This document shows, piece after piece, positions 1,315-49,497 of a stretch of 64,000 bases of DNA. Under the pieces are notes generated by a model. It ran no database searches, had not been told where the DNA came from, and worked only from the letters and a program-made list of their open reading frames with translations. Source of the DNA: Escherichia phage Ecwhy_1. The DNA lies in the sequence record MH791411.1. The stretch is one strand, 5' to 3'. The position numbers and the translations under genes were made by a program. Position 1 is the first letter of the stretch. Each line of letters opens with the position of its first letter.

Positions 1315-1400
1315 GATACACTTATGCACCCTGTGGGCTAGTTTTTGTCTATGCGTATATAATAGCAAAGGGACTGACCTGAGTCAATCCCTTTTTTTAT
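1315..1400 (-). repeat. repeated terminator-promoter-leader module (copies also at about 4065-4160, 7340-7430, 11345-11440)
   Basis: GATACACTTATGCACCCTGTGGGC..TATATAATAGCAAAGGGACTGACCGGAGTCAATCCCTTTTT. Confidence 0.55.
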
Positions 1401-1409
1401 TCTTTTTTG

Positions 1410-1610
1410 TTAGATGATTCTCCAATCATCAACGATCATGGTAAGATACCGAACCAGTGATTCGAGTGATTCGTGTTCTCGATAGTCTGACGCACCGCCA
1501 GCGGTACAAGTACAGCCGATTAAGCCGTTTTGCAATTCCTTAATCTGTACATCGATAAGGTTGGCTTTAGCTTCTTTCAGTACTTCAACCAGGGCGATAG
1601 CGATAGACAT
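1410..1610 (-). CDS. hypothetical small protein (66 aa)
   Basis: ORF; SD GGAG; promoter TTG..TATAAT + hairpin GGGGGAATAGTTCTCCC upstream. Confidence 0.55.
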   Translation of the reverse strand: MSIAIALVEVLKEAKANLIDVQIKELQNGLIGCTCTAGGASDYREHESLESLVRYLTMIVDDWRII

Positions 1611-1700
1611 AATGTTTTACTCCAAACTATTGGCGGGAGAACTATTCCCCCGCTCTATGTAAAACATTATACATTACTGGTTAGTACTGTCAAATAGTTT

Positions 1701-1958
1701 TTATGAAATATCTTCGATGTAGTCGGCCCATTTCATTTTTTCAGTACTGTCAATGGCTACCGGATTATTTGGATCAAACCATTCACCATTACCGCAATAC
1801 ATACCAACGGCTACGGTTTTATAGCCATCCTGGGCCGTACACCACGACATTGCACGATAGATATGGCCTTTAACTGGTTGTAGTACTGGTAACGTTTTAT
1901 GGTCTTCTACGTAGGCCATCGCTTGATGATTTACCCGATATTGTGTGAACTGTTCCAT
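1701..1958 (-). CDS. hypothetical protein (85 aa)
   Basis: ORF; SD AAGGGGAAAC; TTGACA-N17-TGTAAT upstream. Confidence 0.6.
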   Translation of the reverse strand: MEQFTQYRVNHQAMAYVEDHKTLPVLQPVKGHIYRAMSWCTAQDGYKTVAVGMYCGNGEWFDPNNPVAIDSTEKMKWADYIEDIS

Positions 1959-2034
1959 TATGTTTCCCCTTGTAGTTAGTAAAGTTATTACATCAGTACT
2001 ATCAAGCTATGTCAATAGTACTGAAATAAAACTT

Positions 2035-2259
2035 TTAGATTAGATTATTGAGGCCGTCAATGGTAGACTCACTTTCTTCTTTCTCCCATTGTCGGTAGTA
2101 CTTCCATGCTTCATGATAGGTGGCGATTAGTTCATCTTTTTGATCCTGGTTACATGCCAGTACTGAATCACGGTGAGCGGTGTTATAGATAGAATCGAAT
2201 GATTTCTTCTCTTCTGCCAGGTTAGCTACTTCCCGCATCAGTTCATCAAAGTTAGCCAT
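2035..2259 (-). CDS. hypothetical protein (74 aa)
   Basis: ORF; SD AAAGGAG; TTGCAT-N17-TATAAT then perfect hairpin GGGGGAGATATCCTCCCCC. Confidence 0.6.
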   Translation of the reverse strand: MANFDELMREVANLAEEKKSFDSIYNTAHRDSVLACNQDQKDELIATYHEAWKYYRQWEKEESESTIDGLNNLI

Positions 2260-2326
2260 TTTATTACTCCTTTTAGTGGGGGAGGATATCTCCCCCTATG
2301 CAAAACATTATACTTTGTTTTAGTTA

Positions 2327-2590
2327 TTATGCAAGTACTTTTTTCATATAAACATTAAATTCTACACCGCCGTAACCTTCCACGATGATATGTTTTGCGT
2401 TATCACGTTTGCACATAGTGAAACCATCGTTTACGTGTTTTGCATTTTCCAGGGCGACATCACCGATAGCGGCACATACGGCACTAATAACAGTATTCCG
2501 CAAAGTACTGGTATCATTGGCGGTCATAGTAGTTTGCAGTACTACGTTGTCGTATACGTGTGCATTGATAGTGATTTCGATAGTGTTCAT
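2327..2590 (-). CDS. hypothetical protein (87 aa)
   Basis: Track ORF trimmed to MNTIEI start with SD CAGGAG; promoter+hairpin upstream. Confidence 0.6.
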   Translation of the reverse strand: MNTIEITINAHVYDNVVLQTTMTANDTSTLRNTVISAVCAAIGDVALENAKHVNDGFTMCKRDNAKHIIVEGYGGVEFNVYMKKVLA

Positions 2591-2677
2591 GGTGTATCTC
2601 CTGGACTTGAGGGGAAACCATTTCCCCCTCTCGATATAAAACATTATACGTTAATCTAACTACAATGCAAGTACTTT

Positions 2678-2869
2678 TTAAATTTTATTTCCGATATAGT
2701 CCGGCATGTTCTTTTCAGTCATACGCTTTGCTAATGTCTGCATATGGCTTATAGCGTTCAAGGTGTCTTCCTCCAGGGATGAATCGAGATAATCAGGATC
2801 ATTCTTCACCTTGCAATGATTATGATAGCGTAGTACTGCCAGTACTTTTTTAACTTCTTCTACTGTCAT
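2678..2869 (-). CDS. hypothetical small protein (63 aa)
   Basis: ORF; 4-nt overlap with upstream gene suggests coupling. Confidence 0.5.
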   Translation of the reverse strand: MTVEEVKKVLAVLRYHNHCKVKNDPDYLDSSLEEDTLNAISHMQTLAKRMTEKNMPDYIGNKI

Positions 2870-3138
2870 AATAAGTACCCCACTTCGTTAGCTTTCAGGT
2901 TAGTATCAATCATCAGTGGATTTTTGTAGTTCACAAAACGAGTAGTTTTCTCGATAGCGAATCCCATATAATCCAGCTTACTAACAGTACATTCATTCTT
3001 AAAAACTTCTTTCGCTGCATCGATGGCTGATTGCATGGATAACCGACCATCTAAATTAATGTTTCCAAATGATCCACCAGCAGAAGTAGGATTACCGTTC
3101 ATATCTTTAATGATCATAGTAGCGGAGTAGCTGGACAT
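2866..3138 (-). CDS. hypothetical protein (90 aa)
   Basis: ORF; SD AAAGGAAAC; TTGACA-N17-TATAAT + hairpin GGGGAGAACTATTCTCCCC upstream. Confidence 0.6.
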   Translation of the reverse strand: MSSYSATMIIKDMNGNPTSAGGSFGNINLDGRLSMQSAIDAAKEVFKNECTVSKLDYMGFAIEKTTRFVNYKNPLMIDTNLKANEVGYLL

Positions 3139-3163
3139 AATTTTGTTTCCTTTTATTGGTGTG

Positions 3164-3182
3164 GGGAGAACTATTCTCCCCT
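3164..3182 (-). promoter_or_regulatory. 5'UTR hairpin GGGGAGAA-CTA-TTCTCCCC (example of recurring G-rich leader hairpins)
   Basis: Perfect 8-bp inverted repeat between -10 and SD; no T-run after it on the transcribed strand. Confidence 0.55.
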
Positions 3183-3193
3183 TGATGTAAACT

Positions 3194-3222
3194 ATTATAC
3201 AGTACTAAAATACTTTGTCAAA
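3194..3222 (-). promoter_or_regulatory. sigma70-like promoter TTGACA-N17-TATAAT (example of about 40 similar units)
   Basis: Reverse strand reads TTGACAAAGTATTTTAGTACTGTATAAT; AGTACT in spacer. Confidence 0.6.
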
Positions 3223-3227
3223 TACTT

Positions 3228-3635
3228 TTATTCGCCCATATAGATTAGATTATCATCGCCTACATAGGGATCGCAAACGTTGATTTCTTCACAGTACTTC
3301 GTGAATACATCGCCATAGTGACCTAAACCACGATCCCAAAAACCAGTTCCGTGACCTTCGCGGGTAAGGAACAGATCATGACCAGCTTGCTCATAACCGT
3401 AATCAATAAACATACCGCGAACTACTTCCAGATCATTACCGTGTTTCTCAATGAAGCGAGAACATGCAATCACCGCCGCTTGACGTGCTTCATCAGATAA
3501 CTCATAATCTTCCAGGTAATCGCCGTTATCATTATGTACAGTACTGAATTGCATAGCTTCAATGTAAGCTACAACCATTGCAGCATGATTTTTATCGTTA
3601 GTGATGTTCCGAGCGAGATTAGTAGTAGTAGACAT
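3228..3635 (-). CDS. hypothetical protein (135 aa)
   Basis: ORF; SD AAGGAATAAAATC; promoter+hairpin upstream. Confidence 0.6.
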   Translation of the reverse strand: MSTTTNLARNITNDKNHAAMVVAYIEAMQFSTVHNDNGDYLEDYELSDEARQAAVIACSRFIEKHGNDLEVVRGMFIDYGYEQAGHDLFLTREGHGTGFWDRGLGHYGDVFTKYCEEINVCDPYVGDDNLIYMGE

Positions 3636-3718
3636 GATTTTATTCCTTATTGTATTGGGGAGAACTATTCTCCCCTTGATGTAAACTATTATACAGTACT
3701 GATATACTTTGTCAATAC

Positions 3719-3940
3719 TTAATTACGTTTAAAATGATATGTGCCTTTATCATCCTGTACGCCCCATACTGATTTACCATCAACACCAGTGAAGCCGGAT
3801 TGTAATTCAATATGGAAACCATTATTATCAACTACAAAAACTTTTTTATTTTCATCCCGATAACATTGATATTCTGAATCAACATTAAAGGCCGCATCAT
3901 TCAGACGATTGGAAGCGTAAATGCAAGTCATTGTAGTCAT
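3719..3940 (-). CDS. hypothetical protein (73 aa)
   Basis: Track ORF trimmed to MTTMTC start; promoter+hairpin upstream. Confidence 0.55.
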   Translation of the reverse strand: MTTMTCIYASNRLNDAAFNVDSEYQCYRDENKKVFVVDNNGFHIELQSGFTGVDGKSVWGVQDDKGTYHFKRN

Positions 3941-4164
3941 GATTTTATTCCTTAATATACCAGGGAGAACCATTCCCCCTCTCGATATAAAACATTATAC
4001 TTGATTCTAAGTACAATGCAAGTACTTTTTTAAAAATAGTTTTCAGTACTGAATACTTATATAATAGATACACTTCCGCACCCTATGGGTCAGTGAGTTA
4101 TCTCTCAATGGATATATAATAGCAAAGGGACTGACCGGAGTCAATCCCTTTTTTTAATCTTTTT

Positions 4165-4749
4165 TTATCGTGTTACCTTACTTGCTGCCACATCACGCTT
4201 TTTATAGTACTGATTCCAGATATTGCTGGTTAAACCGTAATCAAGTACTTTAATAAGTCCATTACGATCCTGGCCGATATTCTGTTTTCTGATATCTCTT
4301 ATCGTTAGTGTTGATAATGTATCATCAACGTGTTGTAGTGCATCAGCAAAGCGGTGCTGGCGTTCGATTGCATTACGTTTAATATTGTACTTTAATTCAT
4401 TGCACGCGTTTACGTGCTTCACACTGCCTTTGCTTGCAGTACTCAACCGATCCATAACGATAAACATATTATCAGGATCGCATAAATGCATATGCACCTT
4501 TGCAAAGTACTGTTTCAATTGAGGGCGGTCATAGTCTAAAAAATTCCATACCTTACATTCAGTTTCATTTTGTTCTACACCCGCATCACAATTCGCGACC
4601 TTAATCACTAACCGATCATTTAAAGCGAAAACTATACGGGAAGAACCAGCACCGATGATCTCCAGGCCAGCTAACCGACAAGCTGAAAGGATCTCTTTGT
4701 TGGTTTCCATTTCTGACAGTGTACGGATGAATTTAGTATAATTACGCAT
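4165..4749 (-). CDS. protein kinase-like protein (194 aa)
   Basis: Trimmed to MRNYTKF start with SD AAGGAG; motifs IGAGSSRIV (Gly loop), VIKV (Lys), DIRKQN (catalytic-loop-like), DYG (DFG-like). Confidence 0.5.
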   Translation of the reverse strand: MRNYTKFIRTLSEMETNKEILSACRLAGLEIIGAGSSRIVFALNDRLVIKVANCDAGVEQNETECKVWNFLDYDRPQLKQYFAKVHMHLCDPDNMFIVMDRLSTASKGSVKHVNACNELKYNIKRNAIERQHRFADALQHVDDTLSTLTIRDIRKQNIGQDRNGLIKVLDYGLTSNIWNQYYKKRDVAASKVTR

Positions 4750-4780
4750 TGCATGTTCTCCTTGAGTTAATGAAACTATA

Positions 4781-5023
4781 TTACAGTACTTTACTATCAA
4801 TGGCAACTACTTTTTTAACATTAACGGCGTGGATCACTTCCTTCGTGTTTTTAGTACTGAATACTTTCGCCGCTCCTTGTTCGACCGTGATACGATAGCG
4901 ACCATTAACATCAACCATATTAATAAAGTCCGGCGTGCTGAATGGTGTTGTTTTACATTTGAGTACTGTTAACAGTTCCACCAGCGATGTAGTTTCTTTG
5001 ATACGTTTTTCTAAAGTAATCAT
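4781..5023 (-). CDS. hypothetical protein (80 aa)
   Basis: Trimmed to MITLEK start; TTGACA-N17-TACTAT and SD GGGGGAAAC upstream. Confidence 0.55.
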   Translation of the reverse strand: MITLEKRIKETTSLVELLTVLKCKTTPFSTPDFINMVDVNGRYRITVEQGAAKVFSTKNTKEVIHAVNVKKVVAIDSKVL

Positions 5024-5080
5024 TTTGTTTCCCCCGTGTTGGTATGTACATATAGTACTAAAACATTTGAGTACTGTCAA

Positions 5081-5299
5081 TTAGATAATATTATATTTCT
5101 TAAAATAAAATGCGTCCTGTGTTGGTTGATACTCGATACCGTTACCGTTATTGACTTCAACTAATAAACCTTTGTCAATTAGTTTTTTAATAGTACGATA
5201 CCCTTGTTGAAAATTGGTAAAATGTGAATCATTACGAAAGGTATAACCGTGCTTAACTGCTTCATCAATAGTTTTCTTTTCGATTTTAGATAATTTCAT
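5081..5299 (-). CDS. hypothetical protein (72 aa)
   Basis: Trimmed to MKLSKI start; promoter/leader near-identical to that of 4781-5023. Confidence 0.55.
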   Translation of the reverse strand: MKLSKIEKKTIDEAVKHGYTFRNDSHFTNFQQGYRTIKKLIDKGLLVEVNNGNGIEYQPTQDAFYFKKYNII

Positions 5300-5352
5300 T
5301 TTGTTTCTCCCGTGTTGGTATGTGTACATAGTACTAAAACAATTGAGTACTG

Positions 5353-5607
5353 TCAACGTGATATTAGTTTTATTTTCTTATTGTATTGTTGATGCTCATA
5401 AAGGTTTATCTTTCCTGTGTTCTCGATTACTATCCTGTTGTTAGTGTCCACGTCGATTACACGCAGTTTCCCGTTGCTTAACTTCCTAGGTAATAGGTTA
5501 CCATTAATAAACTCATTAGCAAGCTGTACGGCCTTTGTGATGATTCTCTGAGGTGCTTTATAGTGTACCCGTAAGATGTTATCTTTATATAGTTGAACCT
5601 TAATCAT
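5353..5607 (-). CDS. hypothetical protein (84 aa)
   Basis: ORF; SD AGGA; follows an intrinsic terminator. Confidence 0.55.
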   Translation of the reverse strand: MIKVQLYKDNILRVHYKAPQRIITKAVQLANEFINGNLLPRKLSNGKLRVIDVDTNNRIVIENTGKINLYEHQQYNKKIKLISR

Positions 5608-5620
5608 TTTGTTTGTCCTA

Positions 5621-5647
5621 TAAAAAAGGCGGGAACTGATCCCGCCG
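5621..5647 (-). terminator. intrinsic terminator
   Basis: Hairpin GGCGGGATCAGTTCCCGCC + TTTTTTAT on - strand. Confidence 0.6.
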
Positions 5648-5668
5648 TGTTGTTAGTACTGCAAGTTA

Positions 5669-6064
5669 TTAGATAACCTGGCGGCGTTTACTGTATACTG
5701 TTACACGATTACCCTTACGATCATGTCGGATCTCTTTCTGGTTGCGAATCAGTTCACTTGGACGCTTAAGGTTTGCCAGGTGATCCGCGTGAGTCCATGC
5801 GGTGTGGTTTACCTGTACTTTGATATCAGAATCAGCGATAAACTCATCTTGTGCGTCAAGTATTGCCGCCAGCATATCCGCTCGTTTTAGTTCTGCTGCT
5901 GTCAGTACTGGCTCAGGTGAATTCACAATATCAGAGATTTCTTTGAACTGTACGGCCCAGCGTTGACCTTTCGTTGCATCTTTGCCCATGTCTTTAAATG
6001 CTGCTCCTTCCTCGCGTGCAACAATACGGGCAGCTTCACGGGTAGCGTAGAATTTAGTAATCAT
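5669..6064 (-). CDS. hypothetical protein (131 aa), paralog of 19079-19345
   Basis: ORF; shared motifs KFYATREAARIVAR..FKDMG and DRKGNRVTVY; TTGACA-N17-TATAAT upstream. Confidence 0.6.
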   Translation of the reverse strand: MITKFYATREAARIVAREEGAAFKDMGKDATKGQRWAVQFKEISDIVNSPEPVLTAAELKRADMLAAILDAQDEFIADSDIKVQVNHTAWTHADHLANLKRPSELIRNQKEIRHDRKGNRVTVYSKRRQVI

Positions 6065-6159
6065 GGTATACATCCTATTAGTTGAGTTAGTACTACAAGT
6101 TAGAGTCTATTATAAAGTACTATCTGGGCAATGTCAAATAGTACTTTAAATGGATTCTA

Positions 6160-6483
6160 TTACATGTCTTTCTTACGTTTTACATCGTGGTAGCGAACTG
6201 TTATTTCTTTGTTGATCTCTTCCTCGATGCGATGAATAACTTTTTCTTTCGGGTTGAAACCTATAACGGTTTCTTTAATGATCTCCAAGCCCGTGTATTC
6301 GCCTTGTGTACCGTAACCGTATGTAAAGGTTTCGTGTCCCAGGTCTTCCCAGCGGTCGCCAATTAACGCAGACACGTAGCAAGAGTGGTAAGTATTGCCG
6401 TGTGAATCAGTCCACCGATTAACGTTAATGTCAAAGGAGGTTACAATTTTCAATTCTACTTTCTGGGCAAGGATCATAGCCAT
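6160..6483 (-). CDS. hypothetical protein (107 aa), paralog of 13003-13326
   Basis: ORF; shared motif RWTDSHGNTYHSC..FTYGY; promoter+hairpin upstream. Confidence 0.6.
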   Translation of the reverse strand: MAMILAQKVELKIVTSFDINVNRWTDSHGNTYHSCYVSALIGDRWEDLGHETFTYGYGTQGEYTGLEIIKETVIGFNPKEKVIHRIEEEINKEITVRYHDVKRKKDM

Positions 6484-6570
6484 TTTTATTTCTCTCTCTT
6501 TGTTAGGAGGGGAACCATTCCCCTCGCTTGATGTAAACTATTATACAGTACTAAGATACTTTGTCAATAC

Positions 6571-6753
6571 TTATTTTTTGGAAAGTTTACGCATTAATTC
6601 TACGCTTTCTTGTGAACGTTTTGCTACCTGGCAAGCTGTATGGGCAGTAAACATTTTTGTATAGTCTGACGCTTTGCCACCGAACCGAGCGGCACGTTCA
6701 CGGGCACTTGGAACTAATACTATTTCTTTATTACAGATAGTGCACTTAGCCAT
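6571..6753 (-). CDS. hypothetical small protein (60 aa)
   Basis: Trimmed to MAKCTICNKE start; promoter/leader duplicated from the 6160-6483 gene. Confidence 0.5.
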   Translation of the reverse strand: MAKCTICNKEIVLVPSARERAARFGGKASDYTKMFTAHTACQVAKRSQESVELMRKLSKK

Positions 6754-6841
6754 TTTTATTTCTCTCTCTTTGTTAGGAGGGGAACCGTTTCCCCTCACTT
6801 GATGTAAACTATTATACAGTACTAAGATACTTTGTCAATAC

Positions 6842-7117
6842 TTAAGTATTGTAAATGTCGTGAATAGTGATAAAGTTTTTACGACCGTAAACATGTAAAT
6901 CAGTATCAATGTAGTGCTTATCAAGTACATCCTCGACGCTTAAAGACGTGTCGTGAATATCTTCATAAAATTGTGGATCAACAATCGTGCTTAAGTCATC
7001 TGGCGTTAACTTATCGTTAAGGCATTGAACCGCCTGGATATCTGCTTCACGTTTCCATTGTTCCAGATTAGTAGTCAGTACTTGCTCGATTTCGTTAGCT
7101 GTAAGTAAAGTCCGCAT
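6842..7117 (-). CDS. hypothetical protein (91 aa)
   Basis: ORF; SD AAGGAAAC; tandem promoters with long conserved leader upstream. Confidence 0.6.
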   Translation of the reverse strand: MRTLLTANEIEQVLTTNLEQWKREADIQAVQCLNDKLTPDDLSTIVDPQFYEDIHDTSLSVEDVLDKHYIDTDLHVYGRKNFITIHDIYNT

Positions 7118-7185
7118 TTTAATGTTTCCTTATCAGTGGTTGATGTAAGTATTATACTCGTTTACTTTCTATTGTCAAACTATTT

Positions 7186-7262
7186 TATCAGGGGAGTTTT
7201 TCGTATGTCTTACTCCTGGACTACTTAACGGGGTTACTTATTTCGTTCCCCGTCCTGATGTA
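7186..7262 (-). promoter_or_regulatory. conserved ~75-nt structured leader, copy 1
   Basis: Near-identical to 18400-18478, related to 14990-15060. Confidence 0.5.
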
Positions 7263-7432
7263 AAACATTATACTTGATTCTAAGTACAATGCAAGTACTT
7301 TTTTAAAAATAGTTTTCAGTACTAGCCACCAGCAAACAATAGATACATTTATGCACCCTGTGGGCTAATTTGTTTCTATGCGTATATAATAGCAAAGGGA
7401 CTGACCGGAGTCAATCCCTTTTTCAAATATTT

Positions 7433-7582
7433 TTAAACTTCTTTCGGGTTGCGATATGTGATAGCGTTCGGGTACATTTGTTTAATGTTATTCCATGCCT
7501 GGTTAACATTATAACCACTTGATCGAATCAGTTGGTTATTACCGACACCTTGAAACACTACTTCAAATAAGAATTCTTTCAT
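7433..7582 (-). CDS. hypothetical small protein (49 aa, not in ORF track)
   Basis: ATG overlaps stop of upstream gene (ATGA); SD GAGG. Confidence 0.35.
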   Translation of the reverse strand: MKEFLFEVVFQGVGNNQLIRSSGYNVNQAWNNIKQMYPNAITYRNPKEV

Positions 7583-7752
7583 GCTTTCACCTCTCGATCT
7601 GCTTTGCCTTTACGCCAGGCCGTTGCTAATTGTTCGCGTTGCCATAAGTCGAGTGATACGTAAAGTTTTGCATTATCACCCTTCGGATATTCGCCAGTAG
7701 TACCAATCCGATAAAACAGATCTTTCAGTACTGTTAATTCTACCTGGACCAT
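7579..7752 (-). CDS. hypothetical small protein (57 aa)
   Basis: Trimmed to MVQVEL start; promoter+hairpin upstream. Confidence 0.5.
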   Translation of the reverse strand: MVQVELTVLKDLFYRIGTTGEYPKGDNAKLYVSLDLWQREQLATAWRKGKADREVKA

Positions 7753-7839
7753 TATACTTTCCTCTTTGTTAGGAGGGGAACTATTCCCCTTCCGATATAA
7801 AACATTATACACTTTATTCAGTACTGTGCAAGTACTTTT

Positions 7840-8052
7840 TTAATCTTTCAGCCAATGATCCTGAATGAATTTTTCACCGGAACCTTGCTGCATTGATTGT
7901 AACAGACGTTCGCGATGAGCGGCGGCGAATTGCTCAGTACTATGCGTTACACCTGGTTGATATCTGGATTCACCATTTGGGGCGATGTATTGTACATCCC
8001 ACGGTTTTTCGTTAGTATCAGACCATTTACGAACGATTAGTTGACCTTGCAT
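7840..8052 (-). CDS. hypothetical protein (70 aa)
   Basis: ORF; SD AAGAGGAAAG; promoter + hairpin GGGGAGAATCATTTCTCCCC. Confidence 0.6.
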   Translation of the reverse strand: MQGQLIVRKWSDTNEKPWDVQYIAPNGESRYQPGVTHSTEQFAAAHRERLLQSMQQGSGEKFIQDHWLKD

Positions 8053-8135
8053 TTTTCTTTCCTCTTAGTGGGGAGAATCATTTCTCCCCTTCATGTAAAC
8101 TATTATACAGTACTGGATTGCATTGTCAATAGTTT

Positions 8136-8459
8136 TTATTCACCTTGTTTGAATATAGTTTTCTCCATTGATTCCATGATTGCAACCAATACAGCATGGA
8201 TCTCACTTAACGCGGCATCACTAAAAGCATTAATGAATAGGCAATCATTCTCGCGAATATTTTTAATGTACTTATCAGCAGTGGTTGCGAATTCATTCAA
8301 CGGCAGATCAAATGCTTTATCCCATAATGGATGGCGTAACTGTAACAGTACTGGATTATCACGATCACCAGGGGAAAACGTACCAGTGATGAAACATACG
8401 CCCGGAATACTTTCGAACTGGCAACGGACTTCCTTTGTGATAGTAGTATGAATGTACAT
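8136..8459 (-). CDS. hypothetical protein (107 aa)
   Basis: ORF; SD AGAGGATAAC. Confidence 0.55.
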   Translation of the reverse strand: MYIHTTITKEVRCQFESIPGVCFITGTFSPGDRDNPVLLQLRHPLWDKAFDLPLNEFATTADKYIKNIRENDCLFINAFSDAALSEIHAVLVAIMESMEKTIFKQGE

Positions 8460-8486
8460 TTATTGTTATCCTCTATTAAATTAATA

Positions 8487-8675
8487 TTACAGTTTATGAA
8501 TTAATTCTTTATCTAAGCGATAGCGTACATTATTAATGGTAACAGCATTATTTTTAATGCTACGCTGTACGGGTCCACCAGCAATAACAAACGTTGCTTT
8601 ATTGCCCCGAACAATGATAGCACTTCCAGGATTACCGAAATCATCTTGTACTAAAATACTTGATAAGTTTTCCAT
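8487..8675 (-). CDS. hypothetical small protein (62 aa)
   Basis: ORF; SD AAGAGGAAAT; promoter+hairpin upstream. Confidence 0.55.
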   Translation of the reverse strand: MENLSSILVQDDFGNPGSAIIVRGNKATFVIAGGPVQRSIKNNAVTINNVRYRLDKELIHKL

Positions 8676-8753
8676 TTTTATTTCCTCTTAGTAGGGGAAG
8701 ATGTTTCCCCTTGATGCAAGTACTATAACAGTACTGAAAACTAAATGCAAGTA

Positions 8754-9110
8754 CTATGATAAAATCATGATAGGATATTCACTATCTATCAATACCTCGA
8801 ATCCGAAACCTTCGTACCATTCTTTAAGATTAAAGGCGTTATCTTCTCCCGTATCGCATTCTAAGATGATACAATCTGAATCATCGGCGGCATCAATAAA
8901 GGCATTCATTAATTCGTTACCTTCACCATTGCCCCGACTATCAGGATCAACATAAAGAGAATCAATAAACGCTACACGGTCATAATCAAGATCCGGTGCA
9001 ATGATTCCACGTTTAACAAACCAGTACTGCAATTGTGCTACTTTGCCCTGTACTTGATAGCCAGTGATCTCGCCATTGTCAGTAGTACGCGTGATATGTT
9101 GTATTCCCAT
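8754..9110 (-). CDS. GNAT-like acetyltransferase (118 aa), tentative
   Basis: Motifs RGNGEGN (R-x-x-G-x-G) and NAFNLKEWYEGFGF resemble GNAT motifs A/B; SD GAGGATAG. Confidence 0.45.
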   Translation of the reverse strand: MGIQHITRTTDNGEITGYQVQGKVAQLQYWFVKRGIIAPDLDYDRVAFIDSLYVDPDSRGNGEGNELMNAFIDAADDSDCIILECDTGEDNAFNLKEWYEGFGFEVLIDSEYPIMILS

Positions 9111-9173
9111 GATTACTATCCTCAGTTAAGATATAAAACATTATACACTATCTTTCAGTACTGTCAATACTTT

Positions 9174-9431
9174 TTATCTCATAGATCTATGCCAACAATT
9201 ACGCGGATCTCTTTTAAAAGTACTATCATGATCCTCCTGGCAAGTAATACAATACATGCACCCTATAACGGCCTGGCGTCGATTCTCAGGGATTTTATCG
9301 CCGCAGTCGAGGCAATGTACAAGTGATTCTCTTTGTGCGTTAATTTGCTTTCTAGCGTGGTTAACGGCGGCCTGAATCACTGCATGAATCTCGTCTTGTT
9401 CGGCCCCGTCTTTCGCGTATCCTACTGCCAT
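9174..9431 (-). CDS. TraR/DksA-like C4 zinc-finger protein (85 aa)
   Basis: C-x2-C...C-x2-C with CGDKIPENRR; SD GAGG. Confidence 0.55.
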   Translation of the reverse strand: MAVGYAKDGAEQDEIHAVIQAAVNHARKQINAQRESLVHCLDCGDKIPENRRQAVIGCMYCITCQEDHDSTFKRDPRNCWHRSMR

Positions 9432-9589
9432 TATTTTAACCTCATTATAAAAATACTATAGTACTGTAATGCTACAATAATACTACTAGTGTTTATCTTA
9501 TTCAAACCATATGATACTACATATCCACCAGCATTACCACGAATAGTAACGCCTTTGTACTGTCTATATAAATTCAACTGCGTATATTG

Positions 9590-9668
9590 CCTTTGATCAA
9601 GAATTGATCAGAATTATACGCCTTATGCTAAATTGATCCAGTACTTTTTTGATCATTTATTGATCGAT
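9590..9668. repeat. cluster of five TTGATC motifs (GATC sites)
   Basis: TTGATCAAGAATTGATCAGAA..AATTGATCC..TTTTTTGATCATTTATTGATCG. Confidence 0.5.
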
Positions 9669-9760
9669 ATTATATAGTTACATTTGTGCACCCTATGGGT
9701 TAGTGACGTTCTCGTCTTGATGTAAGTATTATGCCAGTACTGGAGGATATTGTCAATAGA

Positions 9761-9964
9761 TTATTTTAATTTTTTTCTGTCATTGATTAATGCTTTCAGT
9801 ACTATACTAATAACTTGCAATGATTCATCAATGACAATGAAATTATTCTCTTTCATTAGATGATAGTTACCATTGATTGTATATTCTAACGAGTACTGTT
9901 TACGTTTAATTTTTGATAATGTTTCTATTTGTTTTTGTACTGATTTCATGCTAATCATTGTCAA
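9761..9964 (-). CDS. hypothetical small protein (67 aa)
   Basis: ORF; weak SD AGGA. Confidence 0.45.
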   Translation of the reverse strand: MTMISMKSVQKQIETLSKIKRKQYSLEYTINGNYHLMKENNFIVIDESLQVISIVLKALINDRKKLK

Positions 9965-10064
9965 ACGTCCTGTAACGCATTCTAACGAGATAAACGGTTT
10001 AGTACTGGCATTGTATAGGGTAAATGATTAAAGCCCACCAGCGTTAACCAGTGGGCTATAATAT

Positions 10065-10208
10065 TACATCTTGCGGATAATCTTAACAGTATCTTTCACC
10101 GATTTACCGTTTTGCTGACATTGCTCGATCATCGCGTATTGTTCTGCGGTCAGATCCTCGCCAGTTTTTGCCAGTACTGCGTCGATGAATGAATCCAGTG
10201 CGATCATT
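10065..10208 (-). CDS. hypothetical small protein (~47 aa, not in track)
   Basis: TTGACA-N17-TATAAT, SD AAGAGAGAAAT, ATG; coordinates approximate. Confidence 0.35.
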
Positions 10209-10297
10209 TTATTTCTCTCTTAGGTTAAGTTAACTACTGTTTATAAAACTTATTATACAGTACTATCAATCTATGTCAATAGTACTGGTAATATATT

Positions 10298-10477
10298 TTA
10301 GCGGTAGTCGTCGTATGCTTTATTCACCTGGCGAATATAACTTTCAAAGGCTTCGTCTACCGTTTCATACTCCCGAACATAATCACCATATGAAACTACA
10401 TACATACCTTTTTGATCTTCAAACGTCATGATGATAGAATCCAGACCAACGATTTCAGTTTTTGCGATGATAGCCAT
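10298..10477 (-). CDS. hypothetical small protein (59 aa, not in track)
   Basis: TTGACA-N17-CATAAT, SD AAGGAA, ATG. Confidence 0.4.
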   Translation of the reverse strand: MAIIAKTEIVGLDSIIMTFEDQKGMYVVSYGDYVREYETVDEAFESYIRQVNKAYDDYR

Positions 10478-10560
10478 TTTTTAATTCCTTAGTAGTGTAG
10501 TTGATAAAAGTTATTATGTCAGTACTATCAAACTATGTCAATAGTACTGTGATAATATTT

Positions 10561-10773
10561 TTAGTTAATGATAGTCAGTGTAAAATTGTAATCACCGCAG
10601 CGATATAGCACGTTATTCCCAAATGTCCCAACTAATCGCACATCACACAAAACGCCGGTTTTTTCTTTTACTTCCTTGATACTTGTAACTCCTGTAATAT
10701 CTTTATTAAAGTATTCATGATCTGAAAATAAAACTTGTTTTGCATTTTTTAATTTCGACCGGATATTAGCCAT
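10561..10773 (-). CDS. hypothetical protein (70 aa)
   Basis: ORF; SD AGAGAGAAAAC; promoter + hairpin GGGGAGAAAAACTTCTCCCC. Confidence 0.55.
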   Translation of the reverse strand: MANIRSKLKNAKQVLFSDHEYFNKDITGVTSIKEVKEKTGVLCDVRLVGTFGNNVLYRCGDYNFTLTIIN

Positions 10774-10869
10774 TTTGTTTTCTCTCTCTGTTAGTGGGGA
10801 GAAGTTTTTCTCCCCTTGATGTAAACTATTATACAGTACTATAATCTATTGTCAAACTATTTTTTTATA

Positions 10870-11211
10870 TTATTCGAAATCTTCTGGACCGGACTGATAA
10901 TCATCTTCACCGTATGCACTTTCTAACCGCTCGCCAGTGTGATCATCAGTTAGTGAGTCATCCTCATAGTTCACGTCTACGCCAGTGATGTAAAACTGGC
11001 TATCGTCTGGATCATTGAAATTAATTTTCTGTATGTTTACAATAACTGTATTGATGCCCAGGACACCGCCATCAGCCGTTACAAAGTACTGATAGTTTTC
11101 GCAACCGCCTGAATTGAAACCGTAATTAATTTCGGCCCGACCATCATTTAAACGCAGTGCCTGGGCGATGATTTCGTTTTCAAAGTTAGATTGAGCAATT
11201 GAGATAGTCAT
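10870..11211 (-). CDS. hypothetical protein (113 aa)
   Basis: Trimmed to MTISIA start; promoter+hairpin upstream. Confidence 0.6.
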   Translation of the reverse strand: MTISIAQSNFENEIIAQALRLNDGRAEINYGFNSGGCENYQYFVTADGGVLGINTVIVNIQKINFNDPDDSQFYITGVDVNYEDDSLTDDHTGERLESAYGEDDYQSGPEDFE

Positions 11212-11663
11212 GATTTGTTTCCTTATTACCAGGGGAAACCGTTTCCCCCTCTCGATGTAAAACATTATACGCTTATTGAGATAGTTTGCAAGTACTTTCT
11301 ACAAATACTTTTAAAATAGTTTTCAGTACTCAATACTCATATAATAGATACACTTATGCACCCTGTGGGCTAGTGAGCTATCTCTCAATGAATATATAAT
11401 AGCAAAATGGCTGACCGGAGTCAACCACTTTTTTCATTTATTTTTAGCTTTTAGAATCGCCGCCTTTCGCGTCATGCCTTGCTTGATGTATTCTTGTACT
11501 TTCGCTTTACGTGCATTCGCTTTATTTGCTTTCGTAAATGCCGAACAACTTTTATAGTTTAAACCTGTTGGATTCATTTAAATCACCATAAAGAATAGAT
11601 AGGTTACTAACAACGCCGCGATCAATGCACCGACCAGGGCCGAACTATAGTAAGCTAATGTTT

Positions 11664-16039: not shown

Positions 16040-16148
16040 TTTCTTATTCCTTAGTTACCAGGGGAACCGCTCCCCCTATGCAAAACATTATACGCGTTTA
16101 AAAACTAATTGCAAGTATTTTAATAAAAAGTATTTGAAAAATAGTTGT

Positions 16149-16290
16149 TGACAAGTGCATCCAGTACTGGCATAATTACTACATCAAGACGAAACAGTCA
16201 CTAACCCACCGGGTGCCGAGATCCGTCTATTAAATGATTCAGTACTGAAAAAGTAACGGGGAGTTATTATCTCCCCGTGTTGTTATTTTG
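16149..16290 (+). ncRNA. candidate small RNA: + strand promoter plus about 100 nt ending at a bidirectional hairpin
   Basis: TTGACA (16149)-N17-CATAAT; leader ACATCAAGACGAAACAGTCACTAACCCACCGGGTGC; hairpin GGGGAG..CTCCCC at 16256-16278 + T-rich; no ORF. Confidence 0.35.
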
Positions 16291-16504
16291 TAAGGTATAA
16301 ACAGAAGTCGCCTTTATTTGCTACGCCGCCAGTGTAACGCGAGGAATAGTTAGAAACGTCCTGGACTTCTGCTATTACCAGGGTATCATCATTCAATTCG
16401 TCGCAGAAGCAAACGGCTGGATCTTGTACGCCGATTTTGTCGGCATGTTCCCGCATAGATTTAACCAGTGCTTCCAGTTGGGAAAGAGTAGTGATATTAG
16501 CCAT
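16283..16504 (-). CDS. hypothetical protein (73 aa)
   Basis: Trimmed to MANITT start; promoter+hairpin. Confidence 0.55.
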   Translation of the reverse strand: MANITTLSQLEALVKSMREHADKIGVQDPAVCFCDELNDDTLVIAEVQDVSNYSSRYTGGVANKGDFCLYLTK

Positions 16505-16588
16505 TTTATTTTCCTCATTACCAGGGAGAACCATTTCTCCCTTTGATGTAAACCATTATACAGTACTGAAAACTAATTGCAAGTACTT

Positions 16589-18557: not shown

Positions 18558-18650
18558 TTGACAGCATTATCAAGTACTGGTATAATATACCCCATGACAA
18601 CAGCTAACCCACCGGGTGCACAATTGTAACTATACTAAACTAATTTTTCT
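18558..18650 (+). ncRNA. candidate small/antisense RNA from a + strand promoter
   Basis: TTGACA-N17-TATAAT then AACCCACCGGGTGCAC; convergent with a - strand promoter at about 18700-18735. Confidence 0.3.
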
Positions 18651-18760
18651 ATAGATACACTCCCGCACCCTATGGGCTACGGCTTATCTGCCAATGAATA
18701 CATTATGCCAGTACTGACAAAATAAGTCAATACCGGCAATTGTAAAGATTTGTAAACTGC

Positions 18761-20127: not shown

Positions 20128-20242
20128 CGTTTTAATCTCTCTTAATGTGTAGCGGGAAGTGTTCCCGCTCTCGATGTAAAACATTATACGCTTTTATCAG
20201 TACGGTGCAAGTACTTTCTACAAATACTTTTAAAATAGTTTT

Positions 20243-20329
20243 CTTTCTATATAGGAGTACTATTATTCAGTACTGCAATCATCCAGGGGAACTATCTTTC
20301 TATATAGGAGTACTATTATTCAGTACTGA
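20243..20329. repeat. 34-bp direct repeat, two copies
   Basis: TCTTTCTATATAGGAGTACTATTATTCAGTACTG at about 20243 and 20296. Confidence 0.6.
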
Positions 20330-20490
20330 ATCAATCCACTAAATCATCCCTATACCCCGTAAAACGTCCTCAGACGCATTCTAACGCATTAATACACATA
20401 AGCTATACATTTGCACCATTCCAATCATTCCAGGGCTTTACAGGCCGTTTAAACGCGTTAAATTATTTTCAATTATTTTGTTTTTAGGTA

Positions 20491-20600
20491 TTGACTTGAT
20501 CCTGAAAAAGCGTATAATTACTACATAGACGCGAGAAAGCGGATACCCCAGGGGGTGGGAAGATCCGTCCAAAATTCAAGATATAAAAAAAGGATACACT
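20491..20600 (+). ncRNA. candidate + strand transcript in the non-coding region
   Basis: TTGACT-N16-TATAAT; leader with CCCCAGGGGGTGGG and GATCCGTCC. Confidence 0.3.
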
Positions 20601-20706
20601 CCCGCACCCTAGCAGGTAAACGCACTTTCTCAGTACTGAAATATAGTACCATAGTCCGGCCCAGGATAGCAAGCAAATTAATTAAAACTTTTTTGCTTCC
20701 AGGGTA

Positions 20707-20800
20707 TTGCTTTATTTTTCCAGTACTGTATAATAGTTCCATCAAGTCGAGAAAGACTCAAGCCCACCGGGTGCATAGTTACGCCCAAAATTCAGTACTG
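20707..20800 (+). ncRNA. candidate + strand transcript in the non-coding region
   Basis: TTGCTT..TGTATAAT (extended -10); leader CCATCAAGTCGAGAAAGACTCAAGCCCACCGGGTGC. Confidence 0.3.
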
Positions 20801-20954: not shown

Positions 20955-21145
20955 ATTTAGCCGTCTATACTTCCAGACGTGTAACCATCTAGCCGTTTAG
21001 CCGTCCAAACGTCTAGCCATCCAGCCATCCAGAAATCTAGCCGTTTAGCCGTCTAGATGGATAGCCATCTTTACTTCCAGACTTCTGGAGGGCTAGACAT
21101 ATCTACGCCCAAAATCCATCCAGGGTAACTACGCCCAAAATCCGT
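20955..21145. repeat. iteron-like cluster of short direct and inverted repeats
   Basis: About 10 copies of TAGCCGT/TAGCCAT in about 120 bp; CTACGCCCAAAATCC twice; palindromes CCAGA..TCTGG, GATGG..CCATC. Confidence 0.5.
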
Positions 21146-22166
21146 CAGTACTATACCATAGATCTATCTTTTGAAAGGGAGTATTCAGTACTGCCATCAT
21201 AGCCCTCACTATGTTACCCTAGGAGGATGAAGACCATCATGTAGTACTGAATACTGTTAGAGGGAATCCACCAGCTTGTGCTGGTGGCATAATGCTTTAG
21301 ATTAAAATCAGTACTGACACCATTCTGTTAATATCAGTACTGTTATTACGATTTTCATATGAGGTTCAAAAAGATGTACCACCACAGGAGGAACTATCTT
21401 TTCTGTACTGTCTCACGACAGGAGGTAGAGTAAATGAATTGTTCGCAGCAACTCATCACCCTATGTAGAACATTATACAGTACTGAATCATAAAGTCAAT
21501 AACTTTCTTTCATCTTTCAGTACTGATATTCTTGAGAACTACCCGACTACAAACATCATTATATCCCACAAATCATAAACGTCCCAACGTAAATTTCAAC
21601 TTTCGAAGATCCAACTTTTATTTCATAGGTACTCCAAAATTTTTAGGATCGAGATTTAGGATGGAGTACTAACCAACTTTTTGCTGGAGCCTCAAGGGGT
21701 AATGGAATTTTACCCCGAAGGGTAAAGGGGTAATTGAAATTAAGGTGAAAGTAATAATTCAGTACTAATCATTGCGTGATTACTTTTGATTACATTTGAT
21801 GTAATTTGCAAAATGGAAAAGGAGCTTGGAAACTACAAAGTACGGCAGACTTCCTCTGCCTACTTAGTGGGATATCGCCACCTTCAGTACTGAATACTTT
21901 TAGGGCAGTACTGAATCCTTCCCTAGCATTCTTGAGTAATCTTGTCTATAATAATCAGTACTGAATCATATATAATCATTCTGTGATTCTACGGTGCTCA
22001 TATAAATGTTTATATATGATTACTTATGACTACATATGATTACGGGGTTTAGCCTGGGGAGAATCCTAGTGATCGCATTTGTCCAGGCTGAATTTTAACA
22101 ATTCTTCTAATTGTTAAAGCCTGTCCAATGCTTTCCCTGCGGAGCTTCCCCTGTCTATATGTTGAA

Positions 22167-36652: not shown

Positions 36653-37840
36653 ATGTTACCTTTTGCAAGAATGGTTAAGTACGGGAATAAAGTCATTCCA
36701 TATGTTCCCAATTTTACTAAATTAGTCACCCCAGCAGTTGGTTATTCATTTACATGCACAATGCTGCTTGATGTAAATGGATCAGTGTGGGCTATGGGTC
36801 TTCAGAATGCAGGAATTTTTGGGTTAGGTAATACTACACAGGTTACTGAATGGACAAAAATATATAACAATGTTAAAGATTTTTGGTGCAGCACGGGGAA
36901 TGGTTTTTGTCTAATACGAACAAATGATGATAGATTCTTTTATAGTGGTTTAGATAAATGGCTAGGTAACAATACAACAAATACTGTAACAACATTCACT
37001 GAATGTACGAGTTATTTTACACAATTTGGTATTTCAAAAATCAAAGAAATATATGTAGGTCTTGATTATGCTTTGATTTTAGGTACTGATAATAGTTTAT
37101 ATTTGTTAGGTGATAATAAAAATTCAAAGTTTGGTTTAAACACTGCATCATATTTTAATAAATTTACATTTTTAGTCGATAATGTTAAAAAATTCTGTTC
37201 ATCCATCACACCATCTAACTGGATTATTAAACTAGATAATACAATATGGCGTACTGGGACAACATCTCATGGAACGTTGGGAAATGGAGTTCAAAACACA
37301 TATATATTTCCTTGGGTTCAATATAAGGGCACACCTGTTACCGAAGCTATAGACGTTTTTTGTAGTGCGAGTTATATTGGTATTATAACTAAAGGTACAC
37401 CAGAATCATGTCCTATGTATACACTAGGCTATCAAGCTGATGGTCAGTTGGGTAATAATACTACAGCAGGGGGTTATAAATTAACGCCAACATTATCGAA
37501 AACCGTTCCAGATGATAGTGAATTCATTCGAATTGAAAACATCTCATCCCGTGGTCTGGTATATTATAGCTCTGGTAAAATTTATAGTACTGGTTATAAT
37601 AACAATGGTCAGTTGGCAAATAATACTAAAATCAATTCTGGTTCATTTGTTGAAGCAATTTTACCTAATGGTGTTAACTTTAAGAAAAGTGAATCACTTG
37701 TAGCTGGGAACGATGCAACGTTGTATATGTACATTAATAATAAATTATACTACGCGGGGAAATCTCCTGATAATATTTCAGCAAGTAGTTCGTCTGTCAT
37801 GAAAGAATTCCCACTTCCAACAATTAATGCCAGTACTTGA
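36653..37840 (+). CDS. RCC1-like repeat protein, paralog 9 (395 aa)
   Basis: MLPFARMVKYGN; SD AAAGGAGG. Confidence 0.75.
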   Translation: MLPFARMVKYGNKVIPYVPNFTKLVTPAVGYSFTCTMLLDVNGSVWAMGLQNAGIFGLGNTTQVTEWTKIYNNVKDFWCSTGNGFCLIRTNDDRFFYSGLDKWLGNNTTNTVTTFTECTSYFTQFGISKIKEIYVGLDYALILGTDNSLYLLGDNKNSKFGLNTASYFNKFTFLVDNVKKFCSSITPSNWIIKLDNTIWRTGTTSHGTLGNGVQNTYIFPWVQYKGTPVTEAIDVFCSASYIGIITKGTPESCPMYTLGYQADGQLGNNTTAGGYKLTPTLSKTVPDDSEFIRIENISSRGLVYYSSGKIYSTGYNNNGQLANNTKINSGSFVEAILPNGVNFKKSESLVAGNDATLYMYINNKLYYAGKSPDNISASSSSVMKEFPLPTINAST

Positions 37841-37892
37841 TACTGGCTTTTCTTTTTGTATTAAATATAGTATAATGAATAAAGGAGGGAAT

Positions 37893-39044: not shown

Positions 39045-39114
39045 AATAATGCCAGTACTCTGTACTGGCTTTTCTTTTTGATTAAATATAGTATAAAGAA
39101 TAAAGGAGGGAATT

Positions 39115-40251: not shown

Positions 40252-40283
40252 TATAATGCCAGTACTATGTACTGGCTTTTCTT

Positions 40284-40934
40284 TTACATATTATATAATG
40301 TGAATGCAGTCACTTTACCAGTTGTTGTTAGTTCATTATAAAGATACTCCAAGATTCTCGCACACTCTAAGTATATCTCGATATCATCATGAATAAGTGA
40401 GTACTGAAATAGCTGTTCTTCAGGTAATTTGTATTGACTTCCTTTTAATGAATTGAGAATATCTTTCACATCATCAAGTACTGGGTAAAGTACGAAATCT
40501 TCATCATATTTTGAAGCAATAAATTCAAATCCACCACCATCAGTACTAGATATACCAATCAGTACTTTATCAATCAAGTTAATGTTTATATAACGGTTGT
40601 GATTTGGGTGAATTGAAATCTCAAACATAAGAGTACTGTTACAATCAACATCAATATACAAATATACATCATTGAATTTATAAGTTAAGCAACCGTACTC
40701 AAGAAAATCAGAGCAAATAATTGATGAGTTTTTTCTCGTCTCTGCGTAATGCATCTTGATATTCTTTTCACGCATAAGTAATTCGAACTTTGCACTAAAC
40801 TTGCCACCAGCAAGATAGTTAGTATTAGGACGTTTGTAACTTGCAACTGGTCGGTGGGATGATGTAAAGTATTTTTTTGTGAATCGTTTATGTTTAGTGA
40901 AATATTCTTGATAGAACTTACTTCTTTTATTCAT
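40284..40934 (-). CDS. hypothetical protein (216 aa), opposite strand inside the RCC1-like array
   Basis: ORF; convergent with paralog 11 and sharing its terminator hairpin. Confidence 0.6.
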   Translation of the reverse strand: MNKRSKFYQEYFTKHKRFTKKYFTSSHRPVASYKRPNTNYLAGGKFSAKFELLMREKNIKMHYAETRKNSSIICSDFLEYGCLTYKFNDVYLYIDVDCNSTLMFEISIHPNHNRYININLIDKVLIGISSTDGGGFEFIASKYDEDFVLYPVLDDVKDILNSLKGSQYKLPEEQLFQYSLIHDDIEIYLECARILEYLYNELTTTGKVTAFTLYNM

Positions 40935-41011
40935 GAGTACCTCAATTAAATCGCTGTAAAATTGTACATTATAAAATGATTAAATAAAGTATAACACAAG
41001 GAGATTTTATC

Positions 41012-45450: not shown

Positions 45451-45517
45451 TTCGTTATCCTCATCAATTGATGAAATAATTATAGCAAAAAGGGCTGACC
45501 TAAGTCAACCCTTTTGT

Positions 45518-47090: not shown

Positions 47091-47210
47091 GTATTGCCTC
47101 TTGAGATGATGAAATAATTATAGCAAAAAGGGCTGACCTAAGTCAACCCTGTTTTAAAGTTTTTTTAATATGTTGATAACGACGGTATGTATTCACCATC
47201 TGTCATCATT

Positions 47211-48341: not shown

Positions 48342-48379
48342 GTTATGTTCCTTTGTGTGACCGAAGTTAACCCTTACCT

Positions 48380-49496: not shown

Positions 49497-49497
49497 A

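Follow-up and report, generated by a model that had tools for sequence, protein, structure and literature searches.

T4-type phages carry PeSL cassettes, in which a strong σ70 early promoter with AT-rich upstream sequence overlaps a stem-loop terminator and which lie among ORFans (PMC2839356; PMC4122927). PeSLs are intergenic cassettes of ~100 bp, and their many repeats provide homology for shuffling (PMC2839356; PMC4122927). A different type of element is known from phage PA5oct, where RNA-seq defined highly transcribed non-coding RNAs (ncRNAs) of 236–451 nt in the terminal repeat (PMC7318152). The 64,000-nucleotide stretch of Escherichia phage Ecwhy_1 analysed here (MH791411.1; hereinafter designated the window) contains four copies of what an earlier note described as one portable ~90-bp module, composed of terminator, promoter, and conserved leader box. 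We find that two independent elements make up each of the four copies, namely a PeSL-like cassette and a ~49-nt RNA module that contains the box. On comparative grounds, the box RNA module is a well-supported structured RNA family that has previously not been described.

All coordinates are positions in the window, and copies are read on the − strand unless stated. The four copies were confirmed; measured from the hairpin to where the conserved RNA ends, they span 1311–1394, 4063–4151, 7338–7421, and 11343–11431 (−). All four have in common the hairpin GGGATTGACTCCGGTCAGTCCC, the promoter TTGACT-17-TATTAT, and the box. In the following list, hairpin 1 is the first hairpin of the RNA that starts at the predicted start site (+1), and the box is its second hairpin.

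1367–1394, − strand: terminator-like hairpin of copy 1 (−35 TTGACT 1382–1387, −10 TATTAT 1359–1364, predicted start ~1352)
1311–1352, − strand: box RNA module of copy 1, of the class without hairpin 1, with A-rich AUAGACAAAAACUA (box 1326–1338; 39.2 bits)
4124–4151, − strand: terminator-like hairpin of copy 2 (−35 TTGACT 4139–4144, −10 TATTAT 4116–4121, predicted start ~4109)
4063–4111, − strand: box RNA module of copy 2 (hairpin 1 UGAG-AGAUAA-CUCA; box 4078–4090, ACCCAUAGGGUGC; 65.4 bits)
7394–7421, − strand: terminator-like hairpin of copy 3 (−35 7409–7414, −10 7386–7391, predicted start ~7379)
7338–7381, − strand: box RNA module of copy 3 (box 7353–7365; Chi site directly downstream, 7326–7333)
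11404–11431, − strand: terminator-like hairpin of copy 4 (−35 11419–11424, −10 11396–11401, predicted start ~11389)
11343–11391, − strand: box RNA module of copy 4 (box 11358–11370; 64.1 bits)

The earlier note read the − strand as a hairpin and T-run with TTGACT inside the stem, followed by a TATA-rich −10 hexamer and then the box, and this anatomy is confirmed. The hairpin lies past the stop codon of the upstream open reading frame; that of copy 2 starts 14 nt past the stop codon of the open reading frame (ORF) 4165–4806, and the other copies are about the same. The copies also align far beyond generic promoter or terminator consensus. With ≤3 mismatches allowed, the box has 12 matches in the window versus 4.1 expected, a count that none of 100 shuffles equals, and the hairpin core has 14 matches versus 2.2 expected. 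We built a covariance model, R1, on a seed of 16 units that share the same geometry and align without gaps, with realignment by Infernal; the four copies match R1 with E-values of 1.7e-8 to 4.9e-16. The list of copies was right as far as it went, but it was incomplete, with a fifth unit at 9673–9720 (−) inside the range that it covered and more units beyond. In 221 kb of compared phage sequence, R1 has 84 matches, 75 of which are distinct. Tallies given below for the hairpin-1 stem and for pause and boxA motifs refer to 63 units, and promoter and context tallies refer to the 75 distinct units from R1.

The box (RCCCAYNGGGTGC in promoter sense) is present in nine copies in the window, six on the − strand and three on the + strand, plus two degenerate copies. 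All nine boxes are located 20–27 nt downstream of a −10 hexamer and have the same orientation relative to it, while the terminator hairpin accompanies only four of the nine. The hairpin with TTGAC in its stem is a family of its own, with 13 copies in the window. The −35 element is inside a hairpin in 4/9 window units and in 18/75 units overall. What had been called portable is therefore both the hairpin-promoter and the box module, each of which recurs, but they recur independently, so that there is no single 90-bp module. An R1 scan of the window with filters off gives nothing credible beyond 21 kb, and the units are confined to 1–21 kb.

The module is tied to σ70 promoters. A σ70 match of ≥10/12 is found just upstream of 84% of the 75 units, compared with 4.6% of random sites. 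In 47 of the units the distance to the −10 hexamer is identical, and +1 accordingly falls on the A of a conserved CAT.

From +1, the ~49-nt module consists of AU, hairpin 1, YUA, the box hairpin, GC, and a single-stranded tail. Hairpin 1 has 3–5 bp, formed by at least 12 different complementary stems, and its loops are A-rich (AGAUAA, GAGAAA, GCGAAA, AGAACAA). The stem of hairpin 1 is missing from 16 of the 63 units, but the A-rich stretch is kept. The box hairpin has 4 bp, R-CCC/GGG-U, with an AYN triloop, and the conserved tail reads RNARRU-SYR-UCU-AUA.

Both helices are supported by comparison among units. In an alignment-free test of hairpin 1, pairing between a unit's own halves scores 7.78 versus 5.94 ± 0.33 for permuted partners, and 0 of 5000 permutations reach the observed value. 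The Infernal alignment, itself fitted to the model, has 96.9% of its cells paired and gives a covariation score of 0.380; shuffled alignments score 0.130 ± 0.009 (0/500 as high) and slid registers no more than 0.057. Both sides vary in all four pairs of hairpin 1. The box closes with A-U in 38 rows and with G·U in 35; its innermost pair has two C-G to U-A swaps, and several copies with a tetraloop keep the stem intact. On the promoter-sense strand the helices contain 50 G·U pairs and 16 mismatches, while on the opposite strand they contain 1 G·U pair and 65 mismatches. This asymmetry indicates that the functional strand is the promoter-sense RNA, which argues against a duplex-DNA operator.

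No covarying partner of the tail was found by mutual information or by a cognate pairing test, indicating that the tail is conserved as sequence. The minimum-free-energy fold suggested long-range pairing, as a helix or pseudoknot, of the tail with the A-rich loop or the 5’ end. This was rejected, with no mutual-information partner, cognate pairing of 10.40 versus 10.31 ± 0.22 (P = 0.35), and a marginal RNAduplex result (P = 0.045). A small ORF was rejected as well, as there is no Shine-Dalgarno sequence (SD) or ATG and the match lengths of 38–53 nt differ by non-multiples of 3.

The window resembles ~35 jumbo phages of E. coli and Salmonella, the PBECO4/121Q/G17 group (Asteriusvirus), with 95–99% identity, and in related records its 1–21 kb region is annotated as part of a direct terminal repeat. 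Copies of the module are found in RaK2, CBB, GAP32, putative Serratia BF, putative 121Q, and relatives, all RaK2-like phages of Enterobacterales. A strict pattern derived from the invariant columns matches only eight IMG/VR contigs, seven of 346–378 kb and one metagenomic contig of 109 kb. By BLAST, these include RaK2 (Klebsiella) and CBB (Pectobacterium) at 100% identity. The CBB region has a close relative in GAP32 (Cronobacter), Serratia phage BF contains a weaker one (27% query coverage, 77% identity), and one further contig is ~79% identical to Salmonella phage Munch and Klebsiella phage fENko-Kae01. One contig, which we take to be 121Q, has units that align with the window units, and unit positions are kept between the window, G17, and 121Q. 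In each genome the units are located within one contiguous region of 20–40 kb, often annotated as terminal repeat. A looser pattern adds few units, in the same phages and with one on a short metagenomic contig, plus ~80 unrelated contigs. The latter contain the Rfam skipping-rope RNA (RF02924) and were rejected as an antisense coincidence arising from the loose search pattern.

Rfam 15 at gathering scores has no match in the whole window, and at E ≤ 5 it has only three (E 0.45–3.6), none at the module and all elsewhere in the region. No tRNA or tmRNA was found, and a search for mimicry of host sequence gave no match in 5,426 E. coli genomes. The module is not annotated in the GenBank record of G17, and no description of the element was found in the literature on RaK2-like phages, in that on Asteriusvirus transcriptomes, or with the motif string. 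The box half is thus a non-coding RNA family new to Rfam, to GenBank annotation, and to the searchable literature.

The other half of the composite is the terminator-like hairpin, which has a 12-pair stem flanked in the four copies by UUUGCUAUUAUAU on the − strand and by U7–8 on the + strand. Because a T/U-run follows it on either strand, the hairpin could terminate in both directions, and the predicted features of an intrinsic terminator, a GC-containing hairpin and a U-tract, are present on both strands. It is flagged as terminator-like on the − strand, and the authors of the G17 record annotated the same hairpin as an ARNOLD-predicted terminator, leaving the next ~190 bp blank. The hairpin past the upstream stop codon would act as an intrinsic terminator with a host σ70 −35 hexamer within its stem; hairpins annotated as terminators in these genomes would thereby double as promoter elements. 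Nine further hairpins at 45487–60083 (families D9 and D15) have TTGAC in the stem (AAAGGGTTGACTTCGGTCAGCCC) and no box; they are followed by TATAAT-TATTTCATC and then by the start of an ordinary − strand gene. At 45–60 kb, the terminator/promoter composite is therefore also in use beyond the early region.

This half is similar to PeSLs in promoter, stem-loop, and setting. Specifically, TTGACT-17-TATTAT and an upstream A-tract are present in all four copies, the 12-pair hairpin overlaps the promoter and is a predicted terminator, and the surroundings consist of small − strand ORFs that encode hypothetical proteins in G17. It differs in that the −35 element is in the stem, whereas the stem-loop of PeSLs is mostly between the −35 and −10 elements or over the −10 element. 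Moreover, the four copies do not end in SD and ATG but lead into the non-coding box module and then into a second promoter. As the phages concerned are RaK2-like jumbo phages, the two are analogues and not homologues. Other than that, the hairpin-plus-promoter half probably behaves like a PeSL cassette, a known type of element.

Further units and one neighbouring promoter in the early region are as follows.

3994–4021, − strand: P2, promoter of ORF 3719–3973 (TTGCAT-16-TATAAT, AAGTACTTGCA class, family D1)
9673–9756, − strand: additional unit without terminator hairpin (promoter TTGACA-17-CATAAT 9728–9756; module 9673–9720; hairpin 1 GACG-AGAA-CGUC; box 9688–9700)
16148–16290, + strand: inverted unit (promoter 16148–16176, module 16184–16231, box 16204–16216, GC hairpin and U-tract 16256–16290)
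18558–18730, both strands: convergent pair (+ strand promoter 18558–18586 and module 18597–18634; − strand promoter 18702–18730 and module 18650–18697)
20491–20672, both strands: degenerate convergent pair (20525–20573 on + and 20589–20639 on −; variant boxes CCCCAGGGGGUGG and CCUGCUAGGGUGC; 15.5 and 12.6 bits)
20707–20789, + strand: unit on the + strand (promoter 20707–20734, module 20741–20789, box 20762–20774)

The 1–21 kb region contains small − strand ORFs, many with their own σ70-type promoter and a GC-rich 5’ hairpin. The encoded proteins are nearly all hypothetical. Six of the ten largest ORFs have no Pfam match at E ≤ 0.01; only one match passes the cut-off (GNAT acetyltransferase), and there is one weak kinase-like match. 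The units always occupy the same slot, with the end of an operon on one side and the next gene’s own promoter on the other, while their orientation varies. Co-directional units, including the four reported copies, run into the next promoter, which is of the AAGTACTTGCA class; transcripts from copy 2 would run into P2. Inverted units (e.g. 16148–16290) face the bidirectional terminator of the upstream gene and have a predicted RNA of ~110 nt; the hairpin at 16256–16290 doubles as the terminator of the − strand ORF 16283–16534. Convergent pairs account for 20 of the 75 units, with a spacing quantised at 30, 41 or 48 nt, start sites ~100–110 nt apart, and no ORF between them. In the pair at 18558–18730, the predicted starts, ~18593 (+) and ~18695 (−), are ~100 nt apart, likewise with no ORF between; those of the units at 9673–9756, 16148–16290, and 20707–20789 are ~9721 (−), ~16183 (+), and ~20741 (+). 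A terminator is located ~60 nt downstream of at least 10 units. SD and ATG follow directly in only 3/75 units, and ~17 units precede a promoter and gene on the same strand. The three units directly upstream of SD and ATG are L011:6035(−), L021:12616(+), and L004:2057(+); in the first two the downstream translation, read by eye, starts MPGQFRSKSGATLAGHSDKWSDENRR, and the third was flagged by the classifier only.

The earlier note regarded the box as the leader box of a restart element placed between gene groups. This role is not supported. The box is the second hairpin of an RNA that starts at +1, and it is not tied to restart because the units have various σ70 promoters and lie on either strand relative to genes, some of them in convergent pairs or with a terminator of their own.

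What the data directly support is the sequence family, the link to promoters, both helices, the identity of the structured strand, and the distribution. For function, we favour a multicopy early small RNA that is itself the product and acts in trans as a protein-binding decoy or regulator, a reading in which our belief and our doubt are about equal. The short RNA itself is favoured as the product because of the orientation independence of the units and the frequent absence of a downstream gene. The near-invariant box and tail across genera, beside a freely compensating stem, imply sequence-specific recognition, and the suggestion of the note that the box may be a protein-binding or processing site is plausible. 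Host RNA polymerase (RNAP) would transcribe the module from the early/terminal-repeat region right after DNA entry. Hairpin 1, 2 nt from the 5’ end, would stabilise the RNA, while a conserved protein would bind the invariant box hairpin and the tail in a sequence-specific manner. Where the module is co-directional, as in the four reported copies, it would also lengthen the leader of the next gene.

More narrowly, the module may be a dedicated early decoy, a proposal that we consider rather unlikely. The ~50-nt RNA would flood the cell, transcribed from ~10–20 strong host-type promoters in the first-entering DNA, and a conserved factor of Enterobacterales would be titrated by its invariant hairpin and tail; a ribonuclease, an RNAP accessory factor, or an RNA-sensing defence protein are examples. 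Convergent pairs would then be collision-terminated mini-genes that release the module alone. If true, the decoy would be an RNA-based device for host takeover or anti-defence.

Several points weigh against the small-RNA reading. Single-sequence folding is not significantly better than that of shuffles (z ~ −1.3), so the structure rests on comparative evidence, and that evidence comes from paralogues and orthologues, which are non-independent samples, and in part from an alignment fitted to the model itself. Start sites and 3’ ends are predictions from sequence, and 25 of the 75 units were not placed by the context classifier. In the four reported copies, the stretch from the module to the next promoter contains no convincing terminator, and their RNA may be simply a long leader. 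No binding partner was found among the neighbouring ORFs, for which Pfam matches are weak or uninformative.

The main alternative, which we consider possible though doubtful, is that the module is a cis-acting leader that stabilises the 5’ end or that modifies or loads RNAP, in the manner of nut, put, or ops antitermination or of anti-Rho systems, so that transcription from these promoters would pass the terminators of the early region. Two hairpins immediately after +1, as in put and nut sites, and a region dense in terminators and promoters are consistent with such a leader, as are the three units directly before SD and ATG and the ~17 before a same-strand promoter and gene. The geometry likewise fits a hairpin-stabilised pause 10 nt past the box stem, with G at −10, a pyrimidine at −1, and a purine at +1 in 63/63 units each, the purine being G in 25. 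However, the orientation of the units is independent of genes, and inverted or convergent units have nothing to antiterminate and would give antisense RNA. Many units have a strong terminator within ~60 nt, and the downstream genes possess their own promoter (family D1). There is no accompanying λ-type boxA (CGCTCTTA / GCTCTTTA) or ops core between −30 and +120, other than a loose match in 1/63 units.

An operator at the DNA level, located at +20 to +33, is improbable; bound as duplex or as non-template strand by a phage or host protein, it would shut off or pause early promoters and leave the RNA incidental. The box is nearly palindromic (ACCC-N3-GGGT), fixed in position, and almost invariant across genera, as expected for such a site. 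However, its first position is G in about half of the copies, which breaks the DNA palindrome and keeps an RNA G·U pair; tetraloop variants alter the half-site spacing and keep the stem; and hairpin 1 covaries as RNA, with the G·U asymmetry marking the transcript strand.

We give still less credence to a mobile promoter/terminator cassette of PeSL type, in which the box would be functionless and conserved through copying and homogenisation. Repeated ~100-bp intergenic units among ORFans are indeed typical of PeSLs (PMC2839356), and the flanking promoter families are repeated too. However, box and tail are near-invariant in phages of E. coli, Klebsiella, Pectobacterium, Cronobacter, and Serratia while the adjacent stem and flanks diverge and compensate; hairpin-1 types such as UGGC-AGAUAA-GCCG are common to several genera, and homogenisation within a genome cannot explain conservation between genera.

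Finally, a small RNA of the + strand that starts near GATACA, contains GCACCCUGUGGGC, and ends at the hairpin and T-run would fit the T7–8 after the hairpin and the TATAAT just upstream of AGATACA in copies 2 and 4, but that −10 is absent in copies 1 and 3, the promoter scan lists none on the + strand, hairpin-less units would lack a + strand terminator, and the helices there have 65 mismatches and 1 G·U pair versus 16 and 50 in promoter sense, so that this reading is largely refuted and can practically be set aside.

The window contains other repeated features. The palindrome AGTACT is >10-fold enriched, with 131 sites versus 7.1 expected in 1–21 kb and 155 versus 14.9 in 21–64 kb. It is located just upstream of the −10 element, within the AAGTACTTGCA −35 class, and 25–35 nt downstream of box units, for example in the promoter spacers CCAGTACTGGCATAAT at 9733–9748 and 16161–16176, and it may be a promoter element or the site of a regulator. 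Between 777 and 20239 there are ~18–25 early promoters (families D1, D2, and D8) of two classes, TTGACA-16-TATAAT and AAGTACTTGCA-16-TATAAT. These are followed by CAT(C/G)AAG, a polyG/polyC hairpin in the 5’ untranslated region (GGGGAGAA...TTCTCCCC), SD, and ATG, which is the classical PeSL layout. The TTGCA promoter class could be a second temporal class.

E. coli Chi sites (GCTGGTGG) are >20-fold enriched in the window, with 15 observed versus 0.67 ± 0.82 expected. Twelve are on the − strand (1272, 3074, 4978, 7326, 8575, 9525, 10035, 14314, 21268, 40804, 51449, and 61982), the orientation read by RecBCD entering at the coordinate-1 end, and nine of those are in the first 21.3 kb. The other three are on the + strand (14376, 21280, and 28313). 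A back-to-back pair, CCACCAGC-TTGT-GCTGGTGG, is located at 21268–21287. The enrichment suggests protection of the genome end against RecBCD.

Beside the back-to-back Chi pair, imperfect 8-bp tandem repeats of the CGTCTAGC / CATCCAGC type occupy 20962–21113 (family D13). This array lies where the − strand early region meets the + strand genes, as a possible marker of a terminal-repeat boundary, a packaging site, or an origin. At 20240–20330, just upstream of the degenerate convergent pair, a direct repeat of ~35 bp (TTTCTATATAGGAGTACTATTATTCAGTACTG) occurs twice, ~60 bp apart. Twelve tandem paralogous + strand genes of ~1.2 kb with the N-terminus MLPFVRM(F/V)(D/K)YGN are located at 26848–41056 (families D3, D6, D7, D12, and D16), and most of them have an identical promoter/SD region (TAAATATAGTATAATGAATAAAGGAGG) and a terminator hairpin, GCCAGTACT...AGTACTGGC.

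RaK2-like jumbo phages are under development as therapeutics against E. coli, Klebsiella, Cronobacter, Pectobacterium, and Serratia, and their early programme is almost entirely uncharacterised. With the R1 model, ~10 non-coding units per genome that currently lack annotation can be annotated. The invariance of a 13-nt RNA hairpin and its tail across genera, next to a compensating stem, implies a specific, conserved binding partner. The RNA would be transcribed from about ten promoters dedicated to it in the terminal repeat, and its partner, once identified, would reveal either a new target of host takeover or a new control of early phage transcription.

Compared with described RNA elements, the module resembles different systems in different respects. 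In the skipping-rope RNA (RF02924), a GC-ACCC-loop-GGGU hairpin agrees over 13–15 nt with the box when the latter is reverse-complemented. However, the match is on the wrong strand, and architecture, promoters, and host range differ, and we judge the likeness a coincidence. The skipping-rope model has no match at E ≤ 5 in 1–21.5 kb of the window. In the ~80 metagenomic phage contigs mentioned above, which are 22–166 kb in length, the skipping-rope RNA itself is found, for example, at L031:4903–4986(+), L022:567–650(+), and L047:8934–9017(+).

The ops element of RfaH and class I pause signals share with the module a small, conserved, hairpin-forming 12–13-mer in a promoter-proximal position. 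TAGGGTG resembles the TAGnnTG of ops, and the G(−10)/Y(−1) spacing after the box hairpin would fit a pause signal. The ops consensus GGCGGTAGnnTG has no match in the window, and the ops residues critical for RfaH, G4 and G5, differ in the box.

No homology to the ncRNAs of the PA5oct terminal repeat was found, as R1 has no match in that repeat and the sequence is unrelated. The likeness is one of setting, namely non-coding RNA in the long terminal repeat of a RaK2-group relative (PMC7318152).

To our knowledge, the module has no apparent sequence similarity to λ nut or HK022 put sites, and no N-like protein was identified. Like nut (boxA and boxB) and put, it is a short structured RNA after early promoters, with small GC stems and purine-rich loops, and it recurs at several early promoters. 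The difference is in the arrangement: here the orientation is independent of genes, units form convergent pairs, and a terminator often follows immediately.

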